Below, piece by piece: positions 1 to 10,106 of a DNA stretch of 10,106 nucleotides. This DNA comes from a virus (taxonomy: Duplodnaviria; Heunggongvirae; Uroviricota; Caudoviricetes). The stretch lies in IMG/VR virus record IMGVR_UViG_2526164690_000014, one strand, 5' to 3'. Position 1 is the stretch's first letter. Each line of letters opens with the position of its first letter. The translations under genes and the position numbers were made by a program. Below the pieces are notes generated by a model that had not been told where the DNA came from, did no database searches, and saw nothing but the letters and a program-made list of their open reading frames with translations.

Positions 1-8
1 CGCGTCAA

Positions 9-191
9 TCACCTTGTTTTCCTCGCACGATGTCTTAGCCACCGGATATCCCACAGGTGAGCCGTGTAATTGAAGGTTTTTACGTCAGATTCTTTTGGGA
101 TTGGCTTGCGTTTATTTCTGGAGCGTTTCGTTGGAAGGTATTTGCAGTTTTCGCAGATGATGTCGGTGATACTTCGTCGCTGTCGCCTCAT
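9..191 (-). CDS. ninE: NinE-like protein (60 aa)
   Basis: Minus-strand ORF, internal Met of the 9..281 track ORF; translation [60 protein letters not shown] matches lambda NinE as I recall it. GAGGG Shine-Dalgarno upstream; ATGA overlap with the stop of the upstream methyltransferase frame. A GTG at 12..10 followed by ATT GAC looks like the start of ninF running off the window edge. Confidence 0.8.
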
Positions 192-716
192 GCCGCCCTC
201 CTGACGCCCTGCCCGATCGCCATCAATGCCGCTTTGGATACAGTAGTAAACATTCGTCGAGGACTGATGAACGGTCGCCAAATCAGCAGCATGGAGCCTT
301 TGCTGTTTCCCTTCTTCTCCAGCCCTGTCGATGGTTCGATAAAATTAATCCGTCCATCAGTGATGATGCGAACTTCGTCAACACTCTCCAGAGCCTTGCT
401 GAACCATCCGACTGACATAATCCTCTGGCACAAGCATCACTACCGTCTGTCGCTGTTGTATGCACTGCTCAGCGGCTTTTTCCACCACGGCCTGATATTG
501 CTGTACGGTTGGGTTATTCCAGATTGCACCGTGGCTTACCCACTCAGAATTGAGCGCGTCGTCGGCCTCAGTTAGCCAGTGAGCGCACAGAGCATTTTTG
601 TCGCTCGCTGCTGAATCCAGCCAGAATCCAAACTCAATATCCAGCGCATCAAAAAGCCAAAGCGGCGTTTGCCAGCAGTCCTTGTCGTGTGCTGGTGTAT
701 TTGATTTGATAGTCAT
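188..716 (-). pseudogene. Phage DNA N6-adenine methyltransferase (Dam-like), interrupted by a +1 frameshift near 417-420
   Basis: N-terminal half (716 down to about 420, MTIKSNTPAHDKDCWQTPLWLFDALDIEFGFWLDSAASDKNALCAHWL...VVMLVPED) and C-terminal half (about 415 down to 188, ...[49 protein letters not shown]...) lie in different minus-strand frames but read as one protein of the prophage methyltransferase family. One extra base in the plus-strand run gacATAAtcc separates them. Confidence 0.6.
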
Positions 717-1164
717 GCAGCCCTACCTTTTCGTTGTGACCATTCATACTCTCGCCGGGAGTCATCACTCCACCGCACGTTGCGCTCTGAGCCGAACCAA
801 AACATGATTTCGATAAGCTCAGTCATGCTGGCCTTTCGCATTTTGCTGGTACGCACGCCAAGCATGACAACGCCACCATCGATACCAGGCACACTTCGTT
901 GCTCCAGTTTTTTGGTCTTAAGCCACAGGGCAGTGAACAGGTCTTTCCAGTCCTCCGGCGCAAGTCTCTGTCCATGCCAAAGCACCTGACGTGATACGTC
1001 CTGCAATAACGCCAACATAAGGCGGTTTTGAGGATTGCTCCGCTTTGGTCTTTAATGTGGACTTCGTGAGGTGACTTGTCGTCGATCGGAAGTGAGAGTA
1101 TTGCGTCTATGGCGTTGTTTCTGATTGCTTCGTTGCGAAGCATGTATATTTGCTTCATTGTCAC
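713..1164 (-). pseudogene. ninB: NinB-like (Orf family recombination mediator), interrupted by a -1 frameshift near 1050-1057
   Basis: N-terminal part MTMKQIYMLRNEAIRNNAIDAILSLPIDDKSPHEVHIK (frame of 1164) aligns with lambda NinB residues 1-37. C-terminal part ...RSNPQNRLMLALLQDVSRQVLWHGQRL...VRWSDDSRREYEWSQRKGRAA (frame of 1018) aligns with the rest of NinB. The join is in the A/T run at plus-strand tctttaat. Confidence 0.6.
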
Positions 1165-1165
1165 C

Positions 1166-1372
1166 TCAACTCACAAAACGCCACGCCATTTTTGCTACAG
1201 CGACAGGCGCAACACCGATAATCACCCACAGGAAAATGCTACCGAAAAGCACACCAACCAGGTCTTTACCTTCGCCTACCAGCCGGACAAAACTGCTGGC
1301 AACCACAATGAACGTCGCCACCATCCACATAGCACCGAGAATCCTCAATGCAGAAAAAATCAACTCAACCAC
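1166..1372 (-). CDS. Small hydrophobic protein (68 aa, two predicted transmembrane helices), function unknown
   Basis: ORF starts with GTG 7 nt after a GGGGGAGAG Shine-Dalgarno, immediately downstream of the tR2-like terminator, where lambda has the ninB start. Translation MVELIFSALRILGAMWMVATFIVVASSFVRLVGEGKDLVGVLFGSIFLWVIIGVAPVAVAKMAWRFVS has two hydrophobic stretches; I do not recognise a homolog. Confidence 0.45.
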   Translation of the reverse strand: MVELIFSALRILGAMWMVATFIVVASSFVRLVGEGKDLVGVLFGSIFLWVIIGVAPVAVAKMAWRFVS

Positions 1373-1389
1373 GATTTACTCTCCCCCAA

Positions 1390-1419
1390 ATAAAAAGGCC
1401 TGCGATTACCAGCAGGCCT
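1390..1419 (-). terminator. tR2-like rho-independent terminator downstream of ren
   Basis: On the minus strand an 8-bp stem AGGCCTGC/GCAGGCCT with an 8-nt loop is followed by TTTTTATTT; this matches the position and sequence of lambda tR2 as I recall it. Confidence 0.65.
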
Positions 1420-1444
1420 GTTATTAGCTCAGTGATGTAGATGG

Positions 1445-1735
1445 TCATCTTTTAACTCCATATACCGCCAATACCCGTTTCATCGCGGCACTCTGGCGAC
1501 ACTCCTTAAAAATTAGGTTCGTGCTCATCTTTCCTTCCCGTTCTTCCTTGGTAGCAAACCGGTAATACACCGTTCGCCAGACCTTACCTTCGATAACCAG
1601 AAGACCTGCCCGTGCCATTTTAGCCGCGGCCTGATTTATGCTGGTTACTGTTGCGCCTGTTAGCGCGGCAACGTCCGGCGCACAGAAGCTATTATGCGTC
1701 CCCAGGTAATGAATAATTGCCTCTTTGCCCGTCAT
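1445..1735 (-). CDS. ren: Ren protein (96 aa)
   Basis: Translation MTGKEAIIHYLGTHNSFCAPDVAALTGATVTSINQAAAKMARAGLLVIEGKVWRTVYYRF... is near-identical to lambda Ren as recalled; ATGA overlap with the P stop. Confidence 0.9.
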   Translation of the reverse strand: MTGKEAIIHYLGTHNSFCAPDVAALTGATVTSINQAAAKMARAGLLVIEGKVWRTVYYRFATKEEREGKMSTNLIFKECRQSAAMKRVLAVYGVKR

Positions 1736-2433
1736 ACACTTGCTCCTTTCAGTCCGAACTTAGCTTTGAGTTCTGCGATCTTCGCCAGAGCCTGTGCACG
1801 ATTTAGAGGTCTACCGCCCATGACAGGAAGTTGTTTTACTGGTTCAGGGATCGCCTCACCACGGTTAATTCTCGCAGTCATATGGACAAGCTCATCTGCG
1901 GCCTTACGGCGTAATTCCGCATCAGTAAGCGCATTGGCCCGCATGTTCTGATACAGGTTGGTAACCAGCCAGTAGTGCGCGTTTGATTTCCACGGATAAG
2001 ACTCCGCATCCGGATACAGGCCTCGCTTCCTGCAATACTCGTAAACCATATCAACCAGCTCGCTGACGTTTGGCAGTCCGGCGATAACGGATGCTTCTTC
2101 CCGGCACCATGCAACAAACTGCCCGGGTGATGGCAGGAATGGTCGATTCTGCCGACGGGCTACGCGCATTCCTGCGTTAACCTGTTCCATTGTGGTGATC
2201 CCGTTTTCCCGGAAAGCCAGAACCCACTGGCGGCGGATTTCGTTCAGTTCGTTCTGGTCACGGTTAGCCAGGCTCGCCGGGAAAGTTGCCAGTAACTGGC
2301 TGAACACACCGTTGATGATCTGCGCTACCTGTTGTACCTGCGGCTTTTCGTCGTACTGTTCCGGCATGTTGTTGGCGATCCGACGCATCTGCTCACGGTC
2401 AAAGTTAACCATCTGTGCGGCGATGTTTTTCAT
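1732..2433 (-). CDS. P: Replication protein P (DnaB helicase loader, 233 aa)
   Basis: Full-length 233-aa ORF MKNIAAQMVNFDREQMRRIANNMPEQYDEKPQVQQVAQIINGVF... is near-identical to lambda P as recalled; its start overlaps the O stop. Confidence 0.95.
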   Translation of the reverse strand: MKNIAAQMVNFDREQMRRIANNMPEQYDEKPQVQQVAQIINGVFSQLLATFPASLANRDQNELNEIRRQWVLAFRENGITTMEQVNAGMRVARRQNRPFLPSPGQFVAWCREEASVIAGLPNVSELVDMVYEYCRKRGLYPDAESYPWKSNAHYWLVTNLYQNMRANALTDAELRRKAADELVHMTARINRGEAIPEPVKQLPVMGGRPLNRAQALAKIAELKAKFGLKGASV

Positions 2434-2854
2434 AAATCCACCCCGTAAATCCAGTCAGTGTTTGTCAGGTCGAGTTTTGGTTTGCTGGCTGTCACGCCTG
2501 CCTGTTGCTTGTTACGGTTGATTTCGAGCTGGGTCCACTTGTCGCGGAGTTTGGCCGGACTCAGCACGTTACCGGACCAGAAGTTGTCCTGGCAGGCCCA
2601 GCGGAAAAGCACACACATATCGCGGTGGTTACGTCCGTCACGTTCACGCATCAGGCGGATATCGTTAGCCCACCCTGCAAAATTCGGTTTTCTGGCTGAT
2701 GGTGCGATGGTCTTCACCATGTCAAACATCCACTCTGCGGCGGTCAGGTCTTCTGCTGTTCCCCACTTGCTGCCGCTCTGAATTGCAGCATCCGGTTTAA
2801 CCACAGAAAGATCGTTTTCTGGCTGGTCAGAGGATTCGCCAGAATTCTCGGACG

Positions 2855-2953
2855 AATAATCTTTTCTTTTTCTTTTGTTATAGTGTCTTTTGTGTCCCCC
2901 TGTTTTGAGGGATCTCCCTCATTTTTAGGGGAACCTCCCTCGTTTTGAGGGAT
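2855..2953. repeat. Lambda-type replication origin inside O: three iteron-like repeats plus an AT-rich region
   Basis: Minus-strand reading gives CATCCCTCAAAACGAGGGAGG, TTCCCCTAAAAATGAGGGAG and ATCCCTCAAAACAGGGGGACAC (about 2953-2896), followed by the A-rich tract ACAAAAGAAAAAGAAAAGATTATTCG. Lambda ori has four such iterons; here I count three. Confidence 0.7.
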
Positions 2954-3030
2954 GCACCATTCTGAGATGTTTTTATTTGGTCCTAAACATGCCGCCTTGC
3001 TGCTTGATAATATTCATTCTGACGAGTTCT

Positions 3031-3039
3031 AACTTGGCT
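3031..3039. repeat. 9-bp target site duplication (AACTTGGCT), left copy
   Basis: Identical 9-mer AACTTGGCT immediately flanks both IS10 termini (3031-3039 and 4369-4377). Confidence 0.9.
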
Positions 3040-3085
3040 CTGATGAATCCCCTAATGATTTTGGTAAAAATCATTAAGTTAAGGT

Positions 3086-3154
3086 GGATACACATCTTGT
3101 CATATGATCAAATGGTTTCGCGAAAAATCAATAATCAGACAACAAGATGTGCGA
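3086..3154 (-). ncRNA. IS10 RNA-OUT antisense RNA (approximate ends)
   Basis: Placed from established IS10 biology (pOUT transcript antisense to the transposase 5' end). In the sequence, CACATCTTGT (3091-3100) and ACAAGATGTG (3142-3151) form the expected inverted repeat spanning the transposase start codon region. Confidence 0.45.
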
Positions 3155-4355
3155 ACTCGATATTTTACACGACTCTCTTTACCAATTCTGCCCCGAATTA
3201 CACTTAAAACGACTCAACAGCTTAACGTTGGCTTGCCACGCATTACTTGACTGTAAAACTCTCACTCTTACCGAACTTGGCCGTAACCTGCCAACCAAAG
3301 CGAGAACAAAACATAACATCAAACGAATCGACCGATTGTTAGGTAATCGTCACCTCCACAAAGAGCGACTCGCTGTATACCGTTGGCATGCTAGCTTTAT
3401 CTGTTCGGGCAATACGATGCCCATTGTACTTGTTGACTGGTCTGATATTCGTGAGCAAAAACGACTTATGGTATTGCGAGCTTCAGTCGCACTACACGGT
3501 CGTTCTGTTACTCTTTATGAGAAAGCGTTCCCGCTTTCAGAGCAATGTTCAAAGAAAGCTCATGACCAATTTCTAGCCGACCTTGCGAGCATTCTACCGA
3601 GTAACACCACACCGCTCATTGTCAGTGATGCTGGCTTTAAAGTGCCATGGTATAAATCCGTTGAGAAGCTGGGTTGGTACTGGTTAAGTCGAGTAAGAGG
3701 AAAAGTACAATATGCAGACCTAGGAGCGGAAAACTGGAAACCTATCAGCAACTTACATGATATGTCATCTAGTCACTCAAAGACTTTAGGCTATAAGAGG
3801 CTGACTAAAAGCAATCCAATCTCATGCCAAATTCTATTGTATAAATCTCGCTCTAAAGGCCGAAAAAATCAGCGCTCGACACGGACTCATTGTCACCACC
3901 CGTCACCTAAAATCTACTCAGCGTCGGCAAAGGAGCCATGGGTTCTAGCAACTAACTTACCTGTTGAAATTCGAACACCCAAACAACTTGTTAATATCTA
4001 TTCGAAGCGAATGCAGATTGAAGAAACCTTCCGAGACTTGAAAAGTCCTGCCTACGGACTAGGCCTACGCCATAGCCGAACGAGCAGCTCAGAGCGTTTT
4101 GATATCATGCTGCTAATCGCCCTGATGCTTCAACTAACATGTTGGCTTGCGGGCGTTCATGCTCAGAAACAAGGTTGGGACAAGCACTTCCAGGCCAACA
4201 CAGTCAGAAATCGAAACGTACTCTCAACAGTTCGCTTAGGCATGGAAGTTTTGCGGCATTCTGGCTACACAATAACAAGGGAAGACTTACTCGTGGCTGC
4301 AACCCTACTAGCTCAAAATTTATTCACACATGGTTACGCTTTGGGGAAATTATGA
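3147..4355 (+). CDS. tnp: IS10 transposase (402 aa)
   Basis: ORF MCELDILHDSLYQFCPELHLKRLNSLTLACHALLDCKTLTLTELGRNLPTKARTKHNIKRIDRLLGNRHLHKERLAVYRWHASF... matches the Tn10/IS10 transposase as recalled, inside the IS10 inverted repeats. Confidence 0.95.
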   Translation: MCELDILHDSLYQFCPELHLKRLNSLTLACHALLDCKTLTLTELGRNLPTKARTKHNIKRIDRLLGNRHLHKERLAVYRWHASFICSGNTMPIVLVDWSDIREQKRLMVLRASVALHGRSVTLYEKAFPLSEQCSKKAHDQFLADLASILPSNTTPLIVSDAGFKVPWYKSVEKLGWYWLSRVRGKVQYADLGAENWKPISNLHDMSSSHSKTLGYKRLTKSNPISCQILLYKSRSKGRKNQRSTRTHCHHPSPKIYSASAKEPWVLATNLPVEIRTPKQLVNIYSKRMQIEETFRDLKSPAYGLGLRHSRTSSSERFDIMLLIALMLQLTCWLAGVHAQKQGWDKHFQANTVRNRNVLSTVRLGMEVLRHSGYTITREDLLVAATLLAQNLFTHGYALGKL

Positions 4356-4368
4356 GGGGATCTCTCAG

Positions 4369-4377
4369 AACTTGGCT
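4369..4377. repeat. 9-bp target site duplication (AACTTGGCT), right copy
   Basis: Same 9-mer as 3031-3039, directly abutting the IS10 inside end. Confidence 0.9.
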
Positions 4378-4640
4378 TCATTGCACCGTTTGACAGGTAA
4401 CTTTGTAATCTCGCTAAGTTGAGAATCGGTGATTCTGTCCATTGGTTTATTCCACCCATAGGTTTTACGCAGAATGGCAAGCAGCACTTTAAACTGTCGC
4501 TTGGTCAGATCTGCGCCTGAATAAGCCTCAATCAGCATATTTGATAGTCTGGCGTAACCATCATCGAGATCTGCCACATTACGCTCCTGTTCGGCAAAGT
4601 TACCTCTGCCGAAGTTGAGTATTTTTGCTGTATTTGTCAT
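4369..4640 (-). pseudogene. O: Replication initiator O, 5' portion (N-terminal 90 codons), truncated by IS10
   Basis: MTNTAKILNFGRGNFAEQERNVADLDDGYARLSNMLIEAYSGADLTKRQFKVLLAILRKTYGWNKPMDRITDSQLSEITKLPVKRCNEAK matches the lambda O N-terminus; AGGAG Shine-Dalgarno upstream. The last codon and stop of the track ORF (4365..4640) are IS10 terminal bases, not native O sequence. Confidence 0.85.
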
Positions 4641-4649
4641 AATGACTCC

Positions 4650-4727
4650 TGTGGATTGATCCAGTAATTCCCTCAGAATTGCATATCAATTTGCTTAGAG
4701 TCCCCGGCGGCCACCGGGGATTTTTTC
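4650..4727 (+). ncRNA. oop: oop-like antisense RNA (antisense to the 3' end of the cII-like gene), with pO-like promoter and intrinsic terminator
   Basis: Plus-strand -35 TTGAGT (4615-4620), 17-bp spacer, -10 CATAAT (4638-4643, overlapping the O start codon on the other strand). A hairpin TCCCCGG-cggcca-CCGGGGA (4701-4720) followed by TTTTTTC ends the transcript. Arrangement matches lambda oop as recalled. Confidence 0.55.
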
Positions 4728-4969
4728 TTTGTGATTTCATCAAGCGCATACTTAAAAGCCCTGCTAATCGGACTGATGTCTGATGCCATTCCGAAAGCAC
4801 ACAAGACCGAAGCAATAAATCTCCAGTCCGTTCTGCTTATCTTCGATTCATGACAGCCAATCATCTTTGCCAGACCGCGCTGGGTAAGCGTTGACAGGTT
4901 GATGAGTAAATCTGTTTCTGCGCGATCAATTTCTCGCTGTGTTAGCTTGCTGTAACTTGCTTGTGCCAT
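4673..4969 (-). CDS. cII: CII-family transcriptional activator (P22 C1-like, 98 aa)
   Basis: ORF MAQASYSKLTQREIDRAETDLLINLSTLTQRGLAKMIGCHESKISRTDWRFIASVLCAFGMASDISPISRAFKYALDEITKKKSPVAAGDSKQIDMQF, located between cro and O as cII is in lambdoid phages. The match to P22 C1 is from memory. Confidence 0.75.
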   Translation of the reverse strand: MAQASYSKLTQREIDRAETDLLINLSTLTQRGLAKMIGCHESKISRTDWRFIASVLCAFGMASDISPISRAFKYALDEITKKKSPVAAGDSKQIDMQF

Positions 4970-5030
4970 TTGTTAATTTTCCTATATTGATATATAGCGG
5001 CACACCCAGTGGATTTGCCGCTGATGTTTG

Positions 5031-5072
5031 CTCACCCGGTTAGAGGTGAAAGGCCAGAACTGTTAAAGAGCA
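5031..5072 (-). promoter_or_regulatory. nutR-like site (boxA plus boxB hairpin)
   Basis: Minus-strand boxA-like TGCTCTTTAACA (plus 5061-5072) followed by a hairpin TCACC-tctaaccg-GGTGA (plus 5031-5049). The same boxA core GCTCTTTAACA and a CTAACC loop occur at nutL (6160-6199). Confidence 0.55.
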
Positions 5073-5078
5073 ATTTAC

Positions 5079-5264
5079 TTATGCCGCTTGGCGGTAAGCA
5101 CTTTCTTGATACTTCAGGGCGCCAGCTGTAACGATTTCCAATCGATAGGCGTCTTTCTCTGGGATAACTTCTTTCCACTGAGAGACTGCTGCATCGCTAA
5201 TGCCTAGTGCTTTAGCAACAGCACGCTGGGTTCCGAAGTGGTCAATAACATCTTTTTTGTACAT
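5079..5264 (-). CDS. cro: Cro repressor (P22/phage 21 type, 61 aa)
   Basis: MYKKDVIDHFGTQRAVAKALGISDAAVSQWKEVIPEKDAYRLEIVTAGALKYQESAYRQAA matches P22 Cro as recalled; GGAG Shine-Dalgarno; divergent from the repressor gene. Confidence 0.9.
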   Translation of the reverse strand: MYKKDVIDHFGTQRAVAKALGISDAAVSQWKEVIPEKDAYRLEIVTAGALKYQESAYRQAA

Positions 5265-5278
5265 AGACTCGCTCCGAA

Positions 5279-5344
5279 ATTAAAGAACACTTAAATTATC
5301 CACCAAAGGAATCTTAAGTCAAGTTTATTTAAGATGTCTTAACT
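5279..5344. promoter_or_regulatory. OR operator cluster with divergent PR/PRM promoters
   Basis: 18-bp sites with 7-4-7 architecture: ATTAAAG-AACA-CTTAAAT (5279-5296) and ATTTAAG-ATGT-CTTAACT (5327-5344), consistent with the P22-type half-site ATTTAAG. A third site between them is likely but I could not place it cleanly. Confidence 0.6.
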
Positions 5345-5995
5345 ATGAATACACAACTGATGGGTGAGCGTATTCGCGCTCGCAGAAAAGAACTCAAGAT
5401 TAGGCAGGCTGCCCTTGGCAAGATGGTTGGCGTGTCTAATGTTGCTATTTCCCAATGGGAGCGATCTGAAACTGAGCCCAATGGCGAAAACCTATTGGCC
5501 TTAGCCAAGGCTTTGCAGTGCTCCCCTGATTACCTGTTGAAAGGAGAGGATAGTCTTTCAAACATTGCCTATCACAGCAGGCATGATCCAAGAGGTTCGT
5601 ATCCTCTAATTAGTTGGGTAAGCGCAGGATGTTGGATGGAAGCTGTAGAGCCATATCATAGGCGTGCAATAGATAACTGGTACGACACAACGGTAGATTG
5701 TTCTGAAGACTCTTTTTGGCTCGACGTTAAAGGTGATTCAATGACTGCCCCGGCAGGACTGAGTATTCCTGAAGGGATGATTATTCTCGTCGACCCAGAA
5801 GTCGAACCACGTAATGGAAAGCTGGTAGTCGCCAAACTTGAAGGAGAAAACGAGGCGACATTCAAAAAGTTAGTTATTGATGCCGGTAGAAAATTCCTGA
5901 AACCACTCAATCCACAATACCCAATGATTGAAATCAATGGGAACTGTAAAATCATTGGCGTTGTCGTTGATGCCAAGCTAGCAAACCTTCCTTAA
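5345..5995 (+). CDS. c2: Prophage repressor, P22 C2 / phage 21 cI type (216 aa)
   Basis: MNTQLMGERIRARRKELKIRQAALGKMVGVSNVAISQWERSETEPNGENLLALAKALQCSPDYLLKG... with a helix-turn-helix N-domain and LexA-like C-domain (…GDSMTAPAGLSIPEGMIILVD…KLEGENEATFKKL…). Near-identical to P22 C2 as recalled. No Shine-Dalgarno, as expected for a PRM transcript. Confidence 0.9.
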   Translation: MNTQLMGERIRARRKELKIRQAALGKMVGVSNVAISQWERSETEPNGENLLALAKALQCSPDYLLKGEDSLSNIAYHSRHDPRGSYPLISWVSAGCWMEAVEPYHRRAIDNWYDTTVDCSEDSFWLDVKGDSMTAPAGLSIPEGMIILVDPEVEPRNGKLVVAKLEGENEATFKKLVIDAGRKFLKPLNPQYPMIEINGNCKIIGVVVDAKLANLP

Positions 5996-6017
5996 GGGGC
6001 TTTCGCCCCTTTTTTAT
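5995..6017 (+). terminator. Rho-independent terminator after the repressor gene
   Basis: Stem AGGGGC/GCCCCT with loop TTTC followed by TTTTTTATTT, directly after the repressor stop codon. Confidence 0.7.
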
Positions 6018-6029
6018 TTCCCGTTAAAA

Positions 6030-6113
6030 ATCAAAGACAAACTAAATTCGCGCCCATAAAATTAAGTTTTCTTCAAAAATGCACTTGACCAAAAAATTAA
6101 GAGGTCTTAATTT
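6030..6113 (+). promoter_or_regulatory. pL promoter with OL operators
   Basis: -35 TTGACC (6085-6090), 17-bp spacer, -10 TAATTT (6108-6113). Operator-like 7-4-7 site AATTAAG-AGGT-CTTAATT (6095-6112) overlaps the promoter; weaker sites at about 6060-6077 and 6030-6047. Confidence 0.6.
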
Positions 6114-6159
6114 TAAGCCGTCAGCAGGAGGCTGGAAGCCAAACGGAACAGATTGGCAG

Positions 6160-6199
6160 GCTCTTTAACATCGACGAACTCTCAACCTAACCGTTGAGA
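6160..6199 (+). promoter_or_regulatory. nutL-like site (boxA plus boxB hairpin)
   Basis: boxA-like GCTCTTTAACA (6160-6170) followed by a 7-bp stem hairpin TCTCAAC-ctaacc-GTTGAGA (6180-6199), between pL and N. Confidence 0.6.
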
Positions 6200-6309
6200 C
6201 CAGAACTTGAGTGGTTTTGGGGATGGCGCGAATTGCAGCTGCAAGACAGCGATCGAGAAGATAAGCACCTCGACGCGTCATGCGCCAAAGCCACTTAAAG
6301 GAGACCATC

Positions 6310-6615
6310 ATGGTAACCATTGTCTGGAAAGAATCCAAAGGTACGGCAAAAAGCCGCTACAAAGCTCGCAGAGCAGAACTTATTGCCGAGCGACGCAGTA
6401 ATGAAGCACTGGCGCGAAAAATTGCGCTAAAGCTCTCTGGTTGCGTCAGAGCAGACAAAGCAGCATCACTAGGAAGCCTTTGCTGCAAGAAGAAAGAAGA
6501 AGTTGTTCGAAAAAATAGAAGTATTTATTACAAGGATTCAAACCCATTAGGAAACAAAATACATGCAGTCCAAAAAATAAAATTGTACAGTAAACTACCG
6601 TACGGTGCTTATTGA
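6310..6615 (+). CDS. N: Antitermination protein N, phage 21 type (101 aa)
   Basis: AAGGAGA Shine-Dalgarno 5 nt before the ATG at 6310. N-terminal arginine-rich motif MVTIVWKESKGTAKSRYKARRAELIAERR matches the phage 21 N RNA-binding peptide as recalled. First gene downstream of pL/nutL. Confidence 0.8.
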   Translation: MVTIVWKESKGTAKSRYKARRAELIAERRSNEALARKIALKLSGCVRADKAASLGSLCCKKKEEVVRKNRSIYYKDSNPLGNKIHAVQKIKLYSKLPYGAY

Positions 6616-6617
6616 GT

Positions 6618-6956
6618 ATGCTTATGGTGAAAAAGACTATTTATGTTAATCCTGACCGCGGACAAAACAGAAAAGTATCTGATAGAGGTCTTACATCTCG
6701 AGACAGGAGGAGAATAGCGAGATGGGAAAAGAGGATAGCATATGCATTAAAAAACGGTGTAACACCTGGATTTAATGCTATAGATGACGGTCCTGAATAT
6801 AAGATTAATGAAGACCCAATGGACAAAGTTGACAAAGCATTAGCAACACCATTTCCTCGCGATGTCGAAAAAATTGAAGATGAAAAATATGAGGATGTAA
6901 TGCACAGAGTTGTTAATCACGCTCACCAACGAAATCCAAATAAAAAATGGTCATAG
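6618..6956 (+). CDS. Hypothetical protein (112 aa; basic N-terminal half, acidic C-terminal half), function unknown
   Basis: ORF starts 3 nt after the N stop (ATG at 6618 or 6624; weak Shine-Dalgarno, possible translational coupling). AT-rich, with many AGA/AGG/ATA codons. Translation MLMVKKTIYVNPDRGQNRKVSDRGLTSRDRRRIARWEKRIAYALKNG...EDEKYEDVMHRVVNHAHQRNPNKKWS has no homolog I recognise. Followed directly by an intrinsic terminator. Confidence 0.5.
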   Translation: MLMVKKTIYVNPDRGQNRKVSDRGLTSRDRRRIARWEKRIAYALKNGVTPGFNAIDDGPEYKINEDPMDKVDKALATPFPRDVEKIEDEKYEDVMHRVVNHAHQRNPNKKWS

Positions 6957-6977
6957 CCCACTTCGGTGGGTTTTTTA
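6957..6977 (+). terminator. Rho-independent terminator
   Basis: Stem CCCAC/GTGGG with loop TTCG followed by TTTTTTATT, immediately after the stop codon at 6954-6956. Confidence 0.7.
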
Positions 6978-7089
6978 TTGGCTGAACTAACCTAATTTAT
7001 TACAGCAAGCCACGCAGTGAAATGGGTGTGACTTGTGTTGGTCGCCAGAAAATGAAATTAGGCAGCAAACCACTTATTTGAGGTGAGAT

Positions 7090-7560
7090 ATGACAAAATC
7101 ATGGAGCGTACCTTTTCCTGAATCAGAAACTGAACATGATGGAATGCCTGTTTTCTGGAGATTCCAGGCGACAGTTGAAGAAGATGGGATAAAAATATTC
7201 GCACTTCAATATATAGCTTTTCATCAGACAGAGCATTATGCATGGTTGGTTCCTGCGCATTGGATTGTTAATTTTAAACCAGCACCAAATCAGTGGTTAC
7301 AGGAATGGAAACAAAGGAGAAATAGATATGCAATTAAGAAAGTAGCAAAAAATGCAGAAAGATCTTTTGCATTCCCAACGAAGAAACTTGCTATTGAAAG
7401 TTTATTGCGCCGGAAGAAATACCATTTAATGAGAATAAAACAAGATTTGGCTGTTGTATCAACTCTTGTTGATGGGATGAAAAATATTGATACATCAACA
7501 CCAGATATTGAATATAACTTTGGACACAACCAAGAAACAGAAAATTGGGTATTTTATTAG
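7090..7560 (+). CDS. Hypothetical protein (156 aa), function unknown; stand-alone accessory gene
   Basis: Strong Shine-Dalgarno GAGGTGA 3 nt before the ATG. AT-rich with rare AGA/AGG/ATA codons. Translation MTKSWSVPFPESETEHDGMPVFWRFQATVEEDGIKIFALQYIAFHQTEHYAWLVPAHWIVNFKPAPNQWLQEWKQRRNRYAIKK... has no transmembrane segment and no motif I recognise. Bracketed by intrinsic terminators upstream (6957-6977) and downstream (7664-7691). Confidence 0.6.
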   Translation: MTKSWSVPFPESETEHDGMPVFWRFQATVEEDGIKIFALQYIAFHQTEHYAWLVPAHWIVNFKPAPNQWLQEWKQRRNRYAIKKVAKNAERSFAFPTKKLAIESLLRRKKYHLMRIKQDLAVVSTLVDGMKNIDTSTPDIEYNFGHNQETENWVFY

Positions 7561-7620
7561 TACGAGTAAGCACTGTGTATTCATTCCAACGAGTGAATAC
7601 ACGGAGCAATGTCGCTCGTA
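7561..7620 (+). promoter_or_regulatory. Extended imperfect palindrome immediately after the 7090..7560 stop codon
   Basis: TACGAG...GTGTATTCA-ttccaacgag-TGAATACAC...CTCGTA: a 9-bp perfect inner stem (7575-7583 / 7594-7602) plus a 6-bp outer stem (7561-7566 / 7615-7620). No T-run follows, so it may be a protein-binding site, RNA processing/stability element or rho-dependent signal rather than an intrinsic terminator. Confidence 0.4.
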
Positions 7621-7663
7621 ACTAAACAGGAGCCGACTTGTTCTGATTATTGGAAATCTTCTT

Positions 7664-7691
7664 TGCCCTCTAATGTGAGGGCGATTTTTTT
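7664..7691 (+). terminator. Rho-independent terminator upstream of ea10
   Basis: Stem GCCCTC/GAGGGC with loop TAATGT followed by GATTTTTTTCT. Confidence 0.65.
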
Positions 7692-7709
7692 CTGTGAGGA
7701 TATGAACAG

Positions 7710-8079
7710 ATGTCAAACATCAAAAAATACATCATTGATTACGACTGGAAAACATCAATAGAAATTGAAATCGACCATGACTTAATGACAGAGGAAAAAC
7801 TTACACCAGATTAATAATTTCTGGTCAGACTCTGAATACCGACTCAATAAACACGGCTCTGTATTAAATGCTGTATTAATCATGCTGGCGCAACATGCTC
7901 TGCTTATAGCAATTTCAAGCGACTTAAATGCATATGGTGTTGTGTGTGAGTTCGACTGGAATGATGGAAATGGTCAGGAAGGATGGCCTCCAATGGATGG
8001 TAGCGAAGGAATAAGAATTACCGATATCGATACATCAGGAATATTTGATCCAGATGATATGACTATCAAAGCCGCCTGA
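7710..8079 (+). pseudogene. ea10: Ea10-like protein (lambda ea10/ssb region), interrupted by a +1 frameshift near 7803-7805
   Basis: N-terminal 34 codons MSNIKKYIIDYDWKTSIEIEIDHDLMTEEKLTPD end at a TAA (7812-7814); the remainder ...NNFWSDSEYRLNKHGSVLNAVLIMLAQHALLIAISSDLNAYGVVCEFDWNDGNGQEGWPPMDGSEGIRITDIDTSGIFDPDDMTIKAA continues in the +1 frame. Together they give about 122 aa matching lambda Ea10 as recalled; one extra base in cttAcacc. Confidence 0.65.
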
Positions 8080-8153
8080 GCGCGGCGTTACCGCATACCA
8101 ATTACGCTTCACTCGAGGTCGTTTTTCGTTATGTAATAAATAAGGAGCACACC

Positions 8154-8318
8154 ATGCAATATGCCATTGCAGGGTGGCCTGTTGCTGGCTGCCCTTCCGA
8201 ATCTTTACTTGAACGAATTACCCGTAAATTACGTGACGGATGGAAACGCCTTATCGACATACTTAATCAGCCAGGAGTCCCGAAAAATGGATCAAACAAT
8301 TATGGCTATCCAGACTAA
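8154..8318 (+). CDS. cIII: CIII protein (FtsH/HflB inhibitor, 54 aa)
   Basis: AAGGAG Shine-Dalgarno; [54 protein letters not shown] matches lambda CIII as recalled. Below the size cut-off of the supplied ORF track. Confidence 0.85.
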   Translation: MQYAIAGWPVAGCPSESLLERITRKLRDGWKRLIDILNQPGVPKNGSNNYGYPD

Positions 8319-8508
8319 ATTCACTATCGCCACTTTTATTGGCGATGAAAAGATGTTTCGTGAGGCCGTCGACGCTTATAAAAAATGGATATTAATACAG
8401 AAACTGAGATCAAGCAAAAGCATTCACTACCCCCTTTCCTGTTTTCCTAATCAGCCTGGCATTTCGCGGGCGATATTTTCACAGCCATTTTCAGGAGTTC
8501 AGCCATGA
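8287..8508 (+). CDS. kil: Kil-like host-killing protein, 73 codons here (lambda Kil is 47 aa as I recall)
   Basis: ATG at 8287 inside the cIII 3' end; [47 protein letters not shown] matches lambda Kil, then the frame runs 26 codons further to the gam start. At the lambda kil stop position (about 8428-8430) the sequence reads TAC. The long-form Gam frame from ATG 8385 hits a TAA at 8448-8450. Confidence 0.55.
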
Positions 8509-8801
8509 ACGCTTATTACATTCAGGATCGTCTTGAGGCTCAGAGCTGGGCGCGTCACTACCAGCAGATCGCCCGTGAAGAGAAAGAGGCAGAACTGGCA
8601 GACGACATGGAAAAAGGCCTGCCCCAGCACCTGTTTGAATCGCTATGCATCGATCATTTGCAACGCCACGGGGCCAGCAAAAAAGCCATTACCCGTGCGT
8701 TTGATGACGATGTTGAGTTTCAGGAACGCATGGCAGAACACATCCGGTACATGGTTGAAACCATTGCTCACCACCAGGTTGATATTGATTCAGAGGTATA
8801 A
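8505..8801 (+). CDS. gam: Gam (RecBCD inhibitor), short form, 98 aa
   Basis: AGGAG Shine-Dalgarno; [60 protein letters not shown]... matches lambda GamS as recalled. Confidence 0.9.
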
Positions 8802-8806
8802 AACGG

Positions 8807-9592
8807 ATGAGTACAGCACTCGCAACGCTGGCTGGGAAGCTGGCTGAACGTGTCGGCATGGATTCTGTCGACCCACAGGAACTGATCACCACTCTTCGCC
8901 AGACGGCATTTAAAGGTGATGCCAGCGATGCGCAGTTCATCGCATTGCTGATCGTCGCCAACCAGTACGGCCTTAATCCGTGGACGAAAGAAATTTACGC
9001 CTTCCCTGATAAGCAGAACGGCATCGTTCCGGTGGTGGGCGTTGATGGCTGGTCCCGCATCATCAACGAAAACCAGCAGTTTGATGGCATGGACTTTGAG
9101 CAGGACAATGAATCCTGCACATGCCGGATTTACCGCAAGGACCGTAATCATCCGATCTGCGTTACCGAGTGGATGGATGAATGCCGCCGCGAACCATTCA
9201 AAACCCGCGAAGGCAGAGAAATCACGGGGCCGTGGCAGTCGCATCCCAAACGGATGTTACGTCATAAAGCCATGATTCAGTGTGCCCGTCTCGCCTTCGG
9301 ATTTGCTGGTATCTATGACAAGGATGAAGCCGAGCGCATTGTCGAAAATACCGCATACACTGCAGAACGTCAGCCGGAACGCGACATCACTCCGGTTAAC
9401 GATGAAACCATGCAGGAAATTAACACTCTGCTGATCGCCCTGGATAAAACATGGGATGACGACTTATTGCCGCTCTGTTCCCAGATATTTCGCCGCGACA
9501 TTCGTGCATCGTCAGAACTGACACAGGCCGAAGCAGTAAAAGCTCTTGGATTCCTGAAACAAAAAGCCACTGAACAGAAGGTGGCAGCATGA
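8807..9592 (+). CDS. bet: Bet (Red-beta single-strand annealing recombinase, 261 aa)
   Basis: Full-length ORF MSTALATLAGKLAERVGMDSVDPQELITTLRQTAFKGDASDAQFIALLIVANQYGLNPWTKEIYAFPDKQNGIVPVVGVDGWSR... matches lambda Bet as recalled; its stop overlaps the exo ATG. Confidence 0.95.
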   Translation: MSTALATLAGKLAERVGMDSVDPQELITTLRQTAFKGDASDAQFIALLIVANQYGLNPWTKEIYAFPDKQNGIVPVVGVDGWSRIINENQQFDGMDFEQDNESCTCRIYRKDRNHPICVTEWMDECRREPFKTREGREITGPWQSHPKRMLRHKAMIQCARLAFGFAGIYDKDEAERIVENTAYTAERQPERDITPVNDETMQEINTLLIALDKTWDDDLLPLCSQIFRRDIRASSELTQAEAVKALGFLKQKATEQKVAA

Positions 9593-10106
9593 CACCGGAC
9601 ATTATCCTGCAGCGTACTGGGAATCGACGTGAGAGCTGTCGAACAGGGAGATGATGCGTGGCACAAATTACGGCTCGGCGTCATCACAGCTTCAGAAATT
9701 CACAACGTAATAGCAAAACCCCGATCAGGAAAGAAGTGGCCTGACATGAAAATGTCCTACTTCCACACCCTGCTGGCTGAGGTTTGCACCGGTGTGGCTC
9801 CGGAAGTTAACGCTAAGGCTCTGGCCTGGGGAAAACAGTACGAGAACGACGCCAGAACCCTCTTTGAGTTCACTTCCGGCGTGAATGTTACTGAATCCCC
9901 GATCATCTATCGCGACGAAAGTATGCGCACCGCCTGCTCTCCCGATGGTTTATGCAGTGACGGCAACGGCCTTGAACTGAAATGCCCGTTTACCTCCCGG
10001 GATTTCATGAAATTCCGGCTCGGTGGTTTCGAGGCCATAAAATCGGCTTACATGGCCCAGGTGCAGTACAGCATGTGGGTGACACGAAAAGATGCCTGGT
10101 ACTTTG
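9589..10106 (+). pseudogene. exo: Exo (Red-alpha 5'-3' exonuclease), 5' portion; +1 frameshift at codon 12 (about 9622-9623); runs off the window end
   Basis: ATG 9589 gives [11 protein letters not shown] then reads [10 protein letters not shown] and stops at 9652-9654. The +1 frame from 9650 reads [74 protein letters not shown]...[18 protein letters not shown] to the window end, near-identical to lambda Exo. One extra A in ctGGGAATCG. Confidence 0.8.

Follow-up and report, generated by a model that had tools for sequence, protein, structure and literature searches.

Lambdoid prophages rendered cryptic by insertion sequences have been described previously, an example being the O remnant of CP-933H in Escherichia coli O157:H7 EDL933. 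Frameshifts in conserved genes have also been encountered in draft genomes, where unexplained disruptions of cas3 and cse1 in the DEC9A, DEC9E, and DEC10D drafts were suspected to be sequencing or assembly errors (Delannoy et al. 2017, PMC5592225). The window analyzed here, a stretch of 10,106 nucleotides, is the reverse complement of an entire contig, AIGH01000048.1 (10,106 bp), from the draft, unfinished assembly GCA_000249835.2 of E. coli DEC8C. The contig was located through its 91-aa O fragment, and recorded protein names bear the name of this strain. It is small (10.1 kb), is bounded by prophage repeats, and may have originated from 454 or low-coverage sequencing. As in CP-933H, the O gene of the window and the origin within it are interrupted by an insertion sequence. 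The window was aligned to the same prophage in NZ_CP077567.1 (strain 88.0502, complete) and NC_013361.1 (O26:H11 strain 11368), and its features are as follows.

1 to 10106, lambdoid prophage early region spanning ninE through exo, in which N is of the phage 21 type and cro and the repressor are of the P22 type
1 to 609, contig-end patch carrying a paralogous prophage allele (ninE and the 3' two-thirds of the methyltransferase gene)
188 to 716, minus strand, phage N-6-adenine methyltransferase, disrupted by three 1-bp indels, all private
713 to 1158, minus strand, ninB, broken by a private loss of T at 1048 (TT to T, codon 37)
2430 to 3039, minus strand, C-terminal part of O with the origin iterons
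3040 to 4368, plus strand, IS10 (ISVsa5 family), 1,329 bp, inserted in O
4369 to 4640, minus strand, N-terminal part of O, in a frame open from 4365 to 4640 that stops just within IS10 and gives a 91-aa product
7710 to 8079, plus strand, ea10/DUF2528, broken by a private gain of A at 7803 (codon 31)
8119 and 8135, two private intergenic insertions in the ea10-cIII gap (gain of T and gain of A, respectively)
8287 to 8508, plus strand, kil, with a C6-to-C5 change (loss of C) at 8429
9589 to 10106, plus strand, exo, broken by a private gain of A at 9622 (codon 11) and running off the contig end

A preliminary description of this sequence had listed six single-base frameshifts, and all of them (419, 1048, 2866, 2984, 7803, and 9622) were recovered as 1-bp indels no more than 5 bp from where they had been placed. 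The count itself was too low, since alignment revealed twelve indels, the additional six being located at 484, 509, 2922, 8119, 8135, and 8429. Ten of the twelve lie in genes (three in the methyltransferase gene, three in O, and one each in ninB, ea10, kil, and exo) and two are intergenic. Each indel by itself explains the split in its reading frame, and in silico reversal of all twelve yielded full-length open reading frames that had no internal stops and showed 0 to 2 amino acid differences from the reference proteins. The changes had been characterized as mostly A or T in or next to short runs; the base involved is indeed A or T in 10 of 12 cases, and in 9 of 12 a run of 1 to 6 bases already present is lengthened or shortened, but the remaining three (2984, 7803, and 8119) are insertions without the same base alongside, such that the label "homopolymer-type" suits only part of the set. 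The genes reported to be intact (P, ren, repressor, cro, N, cIII, gam, bet, and the IS10 transposase) were confirmed as such, and cII is intact as well.

The closest relative of the window was found in the complete genome of strain 88.0502 (O111:H11), where the matching region is NZ_CP077567.1 4863118-4873216. This copy shares with the window the IS10 site and its 9-bp duplication, a 67-bp iteron deletion, and SNP 2031T, and it differs in having none of the twelve indels and in carrying the main allele rather than the paralog allele at positions 1 to 609. As far as is known, 88.0502 and DEC8C are different isolates, and private real mutations are possible at single sites. In the window, IS10 (IS4 family) lies between the two copies of a 9-bp target duplication, AACTTGGCT (3031-3039 and 4369-4377), has the inverted ends CTGATGAATCCCCTAATGAT and CTGAGAGATCCCCTCATAAT, is 99.9% identical to IS10/ISVsa5 copies, and encodes an intact transposase of 402 aa (3147-4355). 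Compared to the copy in 88.0502, it shows zero indels and one synonymous difference (4196). The same insertion was found in NZ_CP077567.1 and at the end of the draft contig AMXP01000280.1. The 67-bp deletion (junction 2901/2902) is situated in O, where it joins iteron 1 to iteron 4, eliminates three of the origin's six iterons, and shifts the reading frame; 88.0502 has it as well, and O is annotated there as "frameshifted."

The confirmed inactivating lesions of this prophage are thus two, namely the insertion of IS10 into O and the deletion of 67 bp among its iterons. Because they disrupt O and its internal origin, the prophage is predicted to be replication-defective and should be so whatever the status of the frameshifts. 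The premise that the frameshifts decide whether the element is dead was therefore wrong, as the O lesions already disrupt the replication gene. The private changes in O are a loss of T at 2866 (T6 to T5, in a T run that is an A run on the O gene strand), an A-to-T substitution at 2879, and gains of T at 2922 (T4 to T5) and at 2984. These single-base changes are not present in 88.0502, and the corresponding probes were unmatched in complete E. coli genomes. Since O was already dead, its three indels could conceivably reflect real neutral decay downstream of IS10. The 124-aa C-terminal fragment of O is identical to annotated partial O proteins on 334 contigs, but it lies downstream of all the indels and was set aside as uninformative about them.

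The same prophage, without IS10, is present in O26:H11 strain 11368 (NC_013361.1) and in about 110 other complete EHEC or aEPEC genomes, none of which has any of the twelve indels and which, like 88.0502, have the main allele at positions 1 to 609. Gene order is the same, and between the indels the window is 100% identical to this prophage in other strains from position 612 to 9975. The methyltransferase, NinB, DUF2528, Kil, and exo are annotated as intact in 88.0502, and AMXP01000280.1, a draft contig that ends at the same O/IS10 junction, lacks all five indels of the 4365-10106 interval. Moreover, 17-mers across eleven of the indels were absent from 146 fetched related loci. Indel-spanning segments were also combined into a probe having no 28-mer in common with sequences that lack the indels; neither the 5,426 complete genomes of E. 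coli nor the 50,697 records of phages contained a match to it at or above 99%, and every probe match listed was missing the inserted base. Short matches are reported in such searches, as indicated by matches of 86 to 97 bits in the complete-genome probe searches and in agreement with local tests; a kil C5 segment serving as the positive control was itself unmatched in the complete genomes, so that sensitivity was not demonstrated on that collection. A 28-mer across the 419 indel (and including 413T) had no exact match in IMG/VR or in the GTDB representatives, neither of which includes the source contig. Comparison with related strains, as the preliminary description had proposed, therefore showed eleven of the twelve indels to be private and absent from relatives, which favors an artifact, the exception being the kil change at 8429, which recurs.

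These comparisons bear directly on whether the prophage of DEC8C, after IS10 killed O, underwent real pseudogenization, with true frameshifts gained in the methyltransferase gene, ninB, O, ea10, kil, and exo. The prophage does possess genuine inactivating lesions (IS10 and the 67-bp deletion), DEC8C is an old collection strain, natural 1-bp frameshifts of ea10 are known in other lineages, and C5 is a genuine allele of kil elsewhere. However, since the common IS10 insertion the DEC8C contig has accumulated 11 private indels and 3 private substitutions, i.e., 14 private changes, compared to zero in the 88.0502 copy, and mutations do not become more frequent when selection is relaxed. A density of roughly one indel per kb would be lethal if genome-wide, and the eleven indels occur in no other assembly searched. 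Whereas the IS10 insertion and the 67-bp deletion, and possibly kil C5, were reproduced in independent isolates, the eleven indels were not. Pseudogenization of these genes is accordingly regarded as very unlikely.

The spectrum of the changes was equally informative. Once the paralog patch at the left end is removed, the private changes consist of 11 indels versus 3 substitutions, and the remaining 13 differences are natural alleles from the paralog or from other copies, mostly synonymous. Eight of the eleven private indels are gains and three are losses, and only two of them fall in runs of 4 or more. Small indels are reportedly about tenfold rarer than substitutions, a figure attributed to Lee et al. 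2012 (PNAS). Losses outnumber gains in mutation-accumulation lines of E. coli, and runs are the hotspots (bioRxiv 10.1101/2020.01.15.908301). Both the 11:3 ratio of indels to substitutions and the preponderance of gains run opposite to the natural E. coli spectrum and again speak against pseudogenization; the excess of indels is unlike natural mutation, and decay would be expected to bring substitutions along at a roughly neutral ratio and with no synonymous bias, yet only the three private ones were found. The changes at 2866, 2922, 8429, and 484 are run-length changes of a type that nature produces as well.

Similar private indels were found in other drafts of the DEC collection, which is also difficult to reconcile with pseudogenization in DEC8C. 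Sister drafts containing the same prophage have private 1-bp indels of their own (no more than three in DEC9B, one in DEC9A, and two in DEC10B), and there were zero private indels in six non-DEC sequences (88.0502, UTAK-12, AMXP01000280.1, GCA_013704385.1, and two Logan read assemblies). One of the DEC9B indels may be the same A-run event as that of DEC9A. Because the eleven indels are private, are absent from 88.0502 despite the common IS10 insertion and deletion, and show an unnatural spectrum, the artifact reading is favored: from these sequence comparisons, the indels at 419, 484, 509, 1048, 2866, 2922, 2984, 7803, 8119, 8135, and 9622 are very probably sequencing or assembly artifacts. 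They would have arisen during base-calling or consensus building of a poorly supported, repeat-flanked contig, and the three private substitutions are probably errors as well. The choice that had been posed between decay and error thus falls on error for eleven of the twelve indels, for which decay is unsupported.

The left end of the contig showed a different kind of anomaly. Positions 1 to 412 match a second site in O26 and O157 genomes at 100%. All discriminating sites through 609, apart from 438, have the base of this paralog in the window, and those from 612 onward have the base of the main allele, which places the switch from the paralog to the main prophage between 609 and 612. The patch explains the differing bases at positions 1 to 3 and all 11 apparent substitutions at 10 to 609; 7 of the 8 in the methyltransferase gene are synonymous. 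The view that these 11 are private mutations or errors was rejected, as they correspond exactly to the paralog allele and are mostly synonymous. The differences at 10 to 609 are natural alleles, so that some oddities of the contig are not noise. The hybrid of paralog and main alleles was found in no complete genome, and the left 609 bp may be a chimeric contig end with the same cause as the indels.

Within the methyltransferase gene, the private indels are a gain of T at 509 (codon 70), a loss of C at 484 (codon 78), and a gain of A at 419 (codon 100). The first two compensate for each other and alter the 8 codons between them, and the product from the native start is 112 aa long versus the 175 expected. 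None of the 17-mers across each of these indels was present in the 146 loci, and the probes had no match at or above 99% in complete E. coli genomes or phages. An exact look-up of the 112-aa fragment likewise gave no match but was uninformative, because the source gene calls omit this open reading frame; they have an antisense open reading frame of 172 aa in its place. In ninB, the private C-to-A substitution at 1014 results in W49L, and the 101-aa C-terminal fragment of NinB is recorded from AIGH01000048.1 alone. If the eleven indels were real, which is very unlikely, they would mean that, once O had been killed by IS10, single bases were gained locally in a burst of about 1 per kb, with the 88.0502 copy unchanged. 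In that event the methyltransferase hybrid would be a true recombinant allele, and a region-specific frameshift-prone process would have acted on the silenced prophage, e.g., error-prone repair or repeated gene conversion with coresident prophages. Such localized accumulation of frameshifts would be unusual.

On the right-hand side of the window, the A gained at 7803 in ea10 has no neighboring A and lies three bases after an A5 run. A 65-aa ea10 fragment is found on 14-24 other contigs, but these were rejected as confirmation of 7803, since they have different lesions or are contig-end partials; single-base pseudogenization of ea10 genuinely occurs in other lineages, with lesions different from this one. 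The substitutions at 9976 and 10012 in exo are synonymous natural variants, and a DEC10A contig shares both 9976A and 10012A. The C5 change in kil lengthens the 54-aa protein to 73 aa, and kil then overlaps the start of gam. The C5 form is also present in the drafts of DEC9A, DEC9B, DEC10A, and DEC10B, in GCA_013704385.1, and in the Logan assemblies DRR528390, DRR528392, SRR094965, and SRR094970, and the SRR0949xx assemblies (two recovered) correspond to DEC9A and DEC9B. It was not found in 88.0502, in AMXP01000280.1, or in any of the 5,426 complete genomes. Recurrence in independent isolates, which the preliminary description had named as the mark of a real variant, was therefore seen for 1 of the 12 indels only, and the change at 8429 may be a real rare allele or an undercall that coincides with that allele.

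This recurrence raises a mixed origin, in which the run-length changes (2866, 2922, 8429, and perhaps 484 and 1048) would be real slippage and the changes at 2984, 7803, and 8119, together with the single-base duplications, would be errors. Runs are natural indel hotspots, and the three O indels sit in a gene that was already dead. Nonetheless, the run-length changes other than 8429 are just as private as the rest, the closest relatives (88.0502 and AMXP01000280.1) have C6 at 8429, and sequencing errors are likewise commonest in homopolymers, which leaves a mixed origin with very little probability. Programmed ribosomal frameshifting or transcriptional slippage, by which the frameshifts would be bypassed and the genes still expressed, has nothing specific in its favor apart from two indels in T or A runs. 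It would have to operate at ten sites in six unrelated genes that have no common slippery motif, two more indels are intergenic, and the compensating pair in the methyltransferase gene scrambles its codons. No homologue among more than 5,000 genomes is interrupted or conserves a frameshift site; this possibility was dismissed as effectively refuted.

The main value of the artifact reading is in quality control. Work that takes pseudogenes, prophage integrity, or counts of decayed prophages from the draft of DEC8C or of other DEC strains would over-call gene loss here; six genes that seem dead in this draft are intact in every related genome. It is the two O lesions, the IS10 insertion and the loss of iterons, both reproducible in an independent complete genome, that govern replication of the prophage, and not the frameshifts. 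Unlike defective prophages of the CP-933H type, the early region of the window is otherwise identical to intact copies and has no confirmed decay beyond O. In having conserved genes split by single-base changes of its own, the contig resembles other drafts of the DEC collection (WGS prefixes AIG*), although its density of 11 indels in 10.1 kb is higher than that of the sister DEC drafts, in which 1 to 3 were found per 4 to 9 kb aligned.

From the listing of ORFs and from similarity searches, the window was identified as the early region of a lambdoid prophage, with the following genes on its two strands:

Minus strand: ninE, a phage N-6-adenine methyltransferase, ninB, a small ORF, ren, P, O (interrupted by IS10), cII, cro
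Plus strand: a LexA-family repressor, N, three small ORFs, ea10/DUF2528, cIII, kil, gam, bet, exo

The N protein carried an arginine-rich motif of the phage-21 type. The source was traced through exact protein matching of a 91-amino-acid O fragment. When reverse-complemented, contig AIGH01000048.1 (10,106 bp; draft GCA_000249835.2) corresponded in its entirety to the window, and NCBI names its proteins under "Escherichia coli DEC8C". The window is a single draft-genome contig, small and bounded by repeats, and not an excerpt of a finished chromosome. The closest sequence in a set of 5,426 complete E. coli genomes was that of O111:H11 strain 88.0502 (NZ_CP077567.1), which aligned in one piece, IS10 included, at 99.7% identity. 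The same prophage without IS10 was present in about 110 more complete genomes, for example, that of O26:H11 11368 (NC_013361.1).

Indels were called from a three-way alignment of the window, 88.0502, and O26:H11 11368, and twelve single-base indels were found in the window that occurred in neither reference. The preliminary description had listed six frameshifts; all six were present where it had placed them, but the count was too low, as two further indels were found in the methyltransferase, one in O, one in kil, and two in intergenic DNA.

Single-base indels of the window (position, change, location)
419, +A, methyltransferase
484, -C, methyltransferase
509, +T, methyltransferase
1048, -T, ninB
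2866, -T, O
2922, +T, O
2984, +T, O
7803, +A, ea10
8119, +T, intergenic
8135, +A, intergenic
8429, -C, kil
9622, +A, exo

When mapped to the reference annotation, 10 of the 12 indels affected coding sequence. The methyltransferase indels at 509 and 484 offset each other across 8 codons, and the kil indel at 8429 lengthened Kil from 54 to 73 amino acids. Undoing the indels returned all ORFs to full length, with 0 to 2 amino acid differences. Gene calling on the source contig was led astray by the frameshifts; its calls include a 172-amino-acid ORF antisense to the broken methyltransferase (window 57-575, plus strand) and give the repressor as a mere 84-amino-acid product.

The indel at 8429 coincides with a C6/C5 run polymorphism close to the 3' end of kil (8287-8508), and with C5 the stop codon of the 73-amino-acid Kil overlaps the start of gam. 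Four more DEC drafts carry the same change from C6 to C5, with its 73-amino-acid product, as do the unrelated NCBI draft GCA_013704385.1 and four Logan read assemblies, including two from Japanese runs whose immunity region differs. Since C5 recurred in both drafts and read assemblies, it is a real, rare allele, which DEC8C itself may carry; it occurred in 0 of the 5,426 complete E. coli genomes, and C6 was found in 88.0502 and the draft contig AMXP01000280.1, which are nearest to DEC8C.

For the other eleven indels, 17-mers across the altered sites were found in none of 146 related loci from IMG/VR, complete genomes, other drafts, and Logan read assemblies. A probe was also assembled from ten indel-spanning segments, designed (and verified locally) so that indel-free sequence had no 28-mer in common with it. 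No match of at least 99% was obtained with this probe in all 5,426 complete E. coli genomes, and likewise none in 50,697 phage records. The 348 complete-genome records that did match the probe did so through divergent alleles, at segments from exo or from upstream of cIII, and among the matches listed, all but six of which were at the exo segment, the inserted base was absent from the subject in every exo match. The NinB fragment produced by the deletion at 1048 was recorded from no contig except AIGH01000048.1. Identical indels in independent isolates, which the preliminary description had named as the mark of real pseudogenization, were thus found for 8429 only and for none of the other eleven.

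Two options had been proposed for the frameshifts, a decaying cryptic prophage or homopolymer-type errors of assembly. For the eleven indels, their private occurrence, their spectrum, and the pattern among DEC drafts favored error over decay, and they are very probably artefacts of the deposited draft contig and not features of the organism. Across the window, the 88.0502 copy had acquired no private changes after the IS10 insertion, whereas the DEC8C contig had 11 indels and 3 substitutions. This asymmetry argues against decay, because relaxed selection cannot lift the mutation rate of one copy alone. Moreover, an indel-to-substitution ratio of 11:3 is the opposite of natural mutation in E. 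coli, in which, as Lee et al. reportedly found in 2012, small indels are about 10 times rarer than substitutions. Mutation-accumulation lines of E. coli showed more losses than gains, with runs as hotspots (bioRxiv 10.1101/2020.01.15.908301); among the eleven indels, gains outnumbered losses 8 to 3, only 2 were in runs of at least four bases, and three insertions had no adjoining identical base. With a sister copy free of private changes and a spectrum unlike the natural one in both ratios, it is very unlikely that the indels are genuine mutations of a decaying prophage, although real private mutations are conceivable at single sites, chiefly as changes of run length in O, which was already dead. 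A mixture of real and erroneous indels is about as unlikely. Programmed frameshifting can be excluded for practical purposes, because there are ten sites in six genes with no common motif and the homologues are uninterrupted everywhere.

The reading as contig errors also agrees with other DEC drafts of the same prophage, as those of DEC9B, DEC9A, and DEC10B each had their own, differing private 1-bp indels and six non-DEC sequences had none. A small, repeat-bounded contig with one end in a paralog allele is, moreover, the setting of poorest consensus quality. For cas genes of DEC9A, DEC9E, and DEC10D, Delannoy et al. (2017; PMC5592225) noted frameshifts that they could not explain and suspected errors of sequencing or assembly. 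In window-equivalent positions, private 1-base deletions were located at 4726 in cII and 7289 in a 156-amino-acid ORF in DEC9B (L127, AIGL01000044.1) and at 7555 in DEC10B (L132); the DEC9A draft (L129) was also listed with a private single-base deletion in this prophage. The deletions in these sister drafts disrupt the gene calls there. Separately, ea10/DUF2528 was split by other 1-bp deletions in unrelated lambda-like prophages (L137 from SRR6112192 and L138 from SRR28957326), at the window equivalents of an A5 run at 7799 and of 7863. One of the two recurred at over 10 comparable sites, so that ea10 pseudogenes that are genuine and inherited do exist in other prophages.

Apart from the first three bases, which also differ and were left out of the count, the window differed from 88.0502 by 16 substitutions, 11 of them at 10-609. 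Since these changes were mostly synonymous (7 of 8 in the methyltransferase) and the ninE stop codon was swapped from TAA to TGA, the pattern at 10-609 is one of natural allelic variation rather than noise. Window 1-412 matched, at 100%, a paralogous prophage located elsewhere in the same O26 and O157 genomes, and site by site the paralog allele continued to 609, with 438 the sole exception, and the allele of the main prophage began at 612. The hybrid methyltransferase allele was present in no complete genome, the best match across 1-1100 being 98.7%. Because of this switch and the absence of the hybrid from complete genomes, the left end of the contig is either a unique recombinant or a chimeric consensus that crosses into a prophage module present in several copies. 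Measured against the RM10386 paralog, the switch interval between 609 and 612 was very narrow, at 2 bp. Two substitutions in exo (9976 and 10012) were synonymous and common to another DEC contig, and three private substitutions were left, at 1014, 2879, and 4196, the last within IS10. Those at 1014 (GCCCAC to GCCAAC) and 2879 (GTAATA to GTTATA) each swap the lengths of two neighboring runs, as expected of paired over- and under-calls, but with two cases this could easily be chance.

For users of DEC drafts, the frameshifts serve as a data-quality warning and represent no new biological feature. The replication gene O is interrupted by IS10 (3040-4368; 1,329 bp), which encodes an intact transposase of 402 amino acids and is flanked by a 9-bp target duplication, AACTTGGCT (window 3031-4377 with both copies); an O fragment of 91 amino acids terminates barely within it. 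The identical insertion was found in the complete genome of 88.0502, the sole carrier among about 110 complete genomes with the prophage, and AMXP01000280.1 terminates at the same junction. In both the window and 88.0502, a 67-bp deletion at 2901/2902 has fused origin iteron 1 to iteron 4 within O, shifting the frame and leaving 3 of 6 iterons. This deletion is real, since it is common to 88.0502, whose RefSeq annotation tags the O fragment "frameshifted", and it looks like the product of recombination between direct iteron repeats. Because of the IS10 insertion and the iteron deletion in O, the prophage would be defective irrespective of the status of the frameshifts; both changes are reproducible, and, judged by established lambda biology, they should suffice for a defect in O- and ori-dependent replication.
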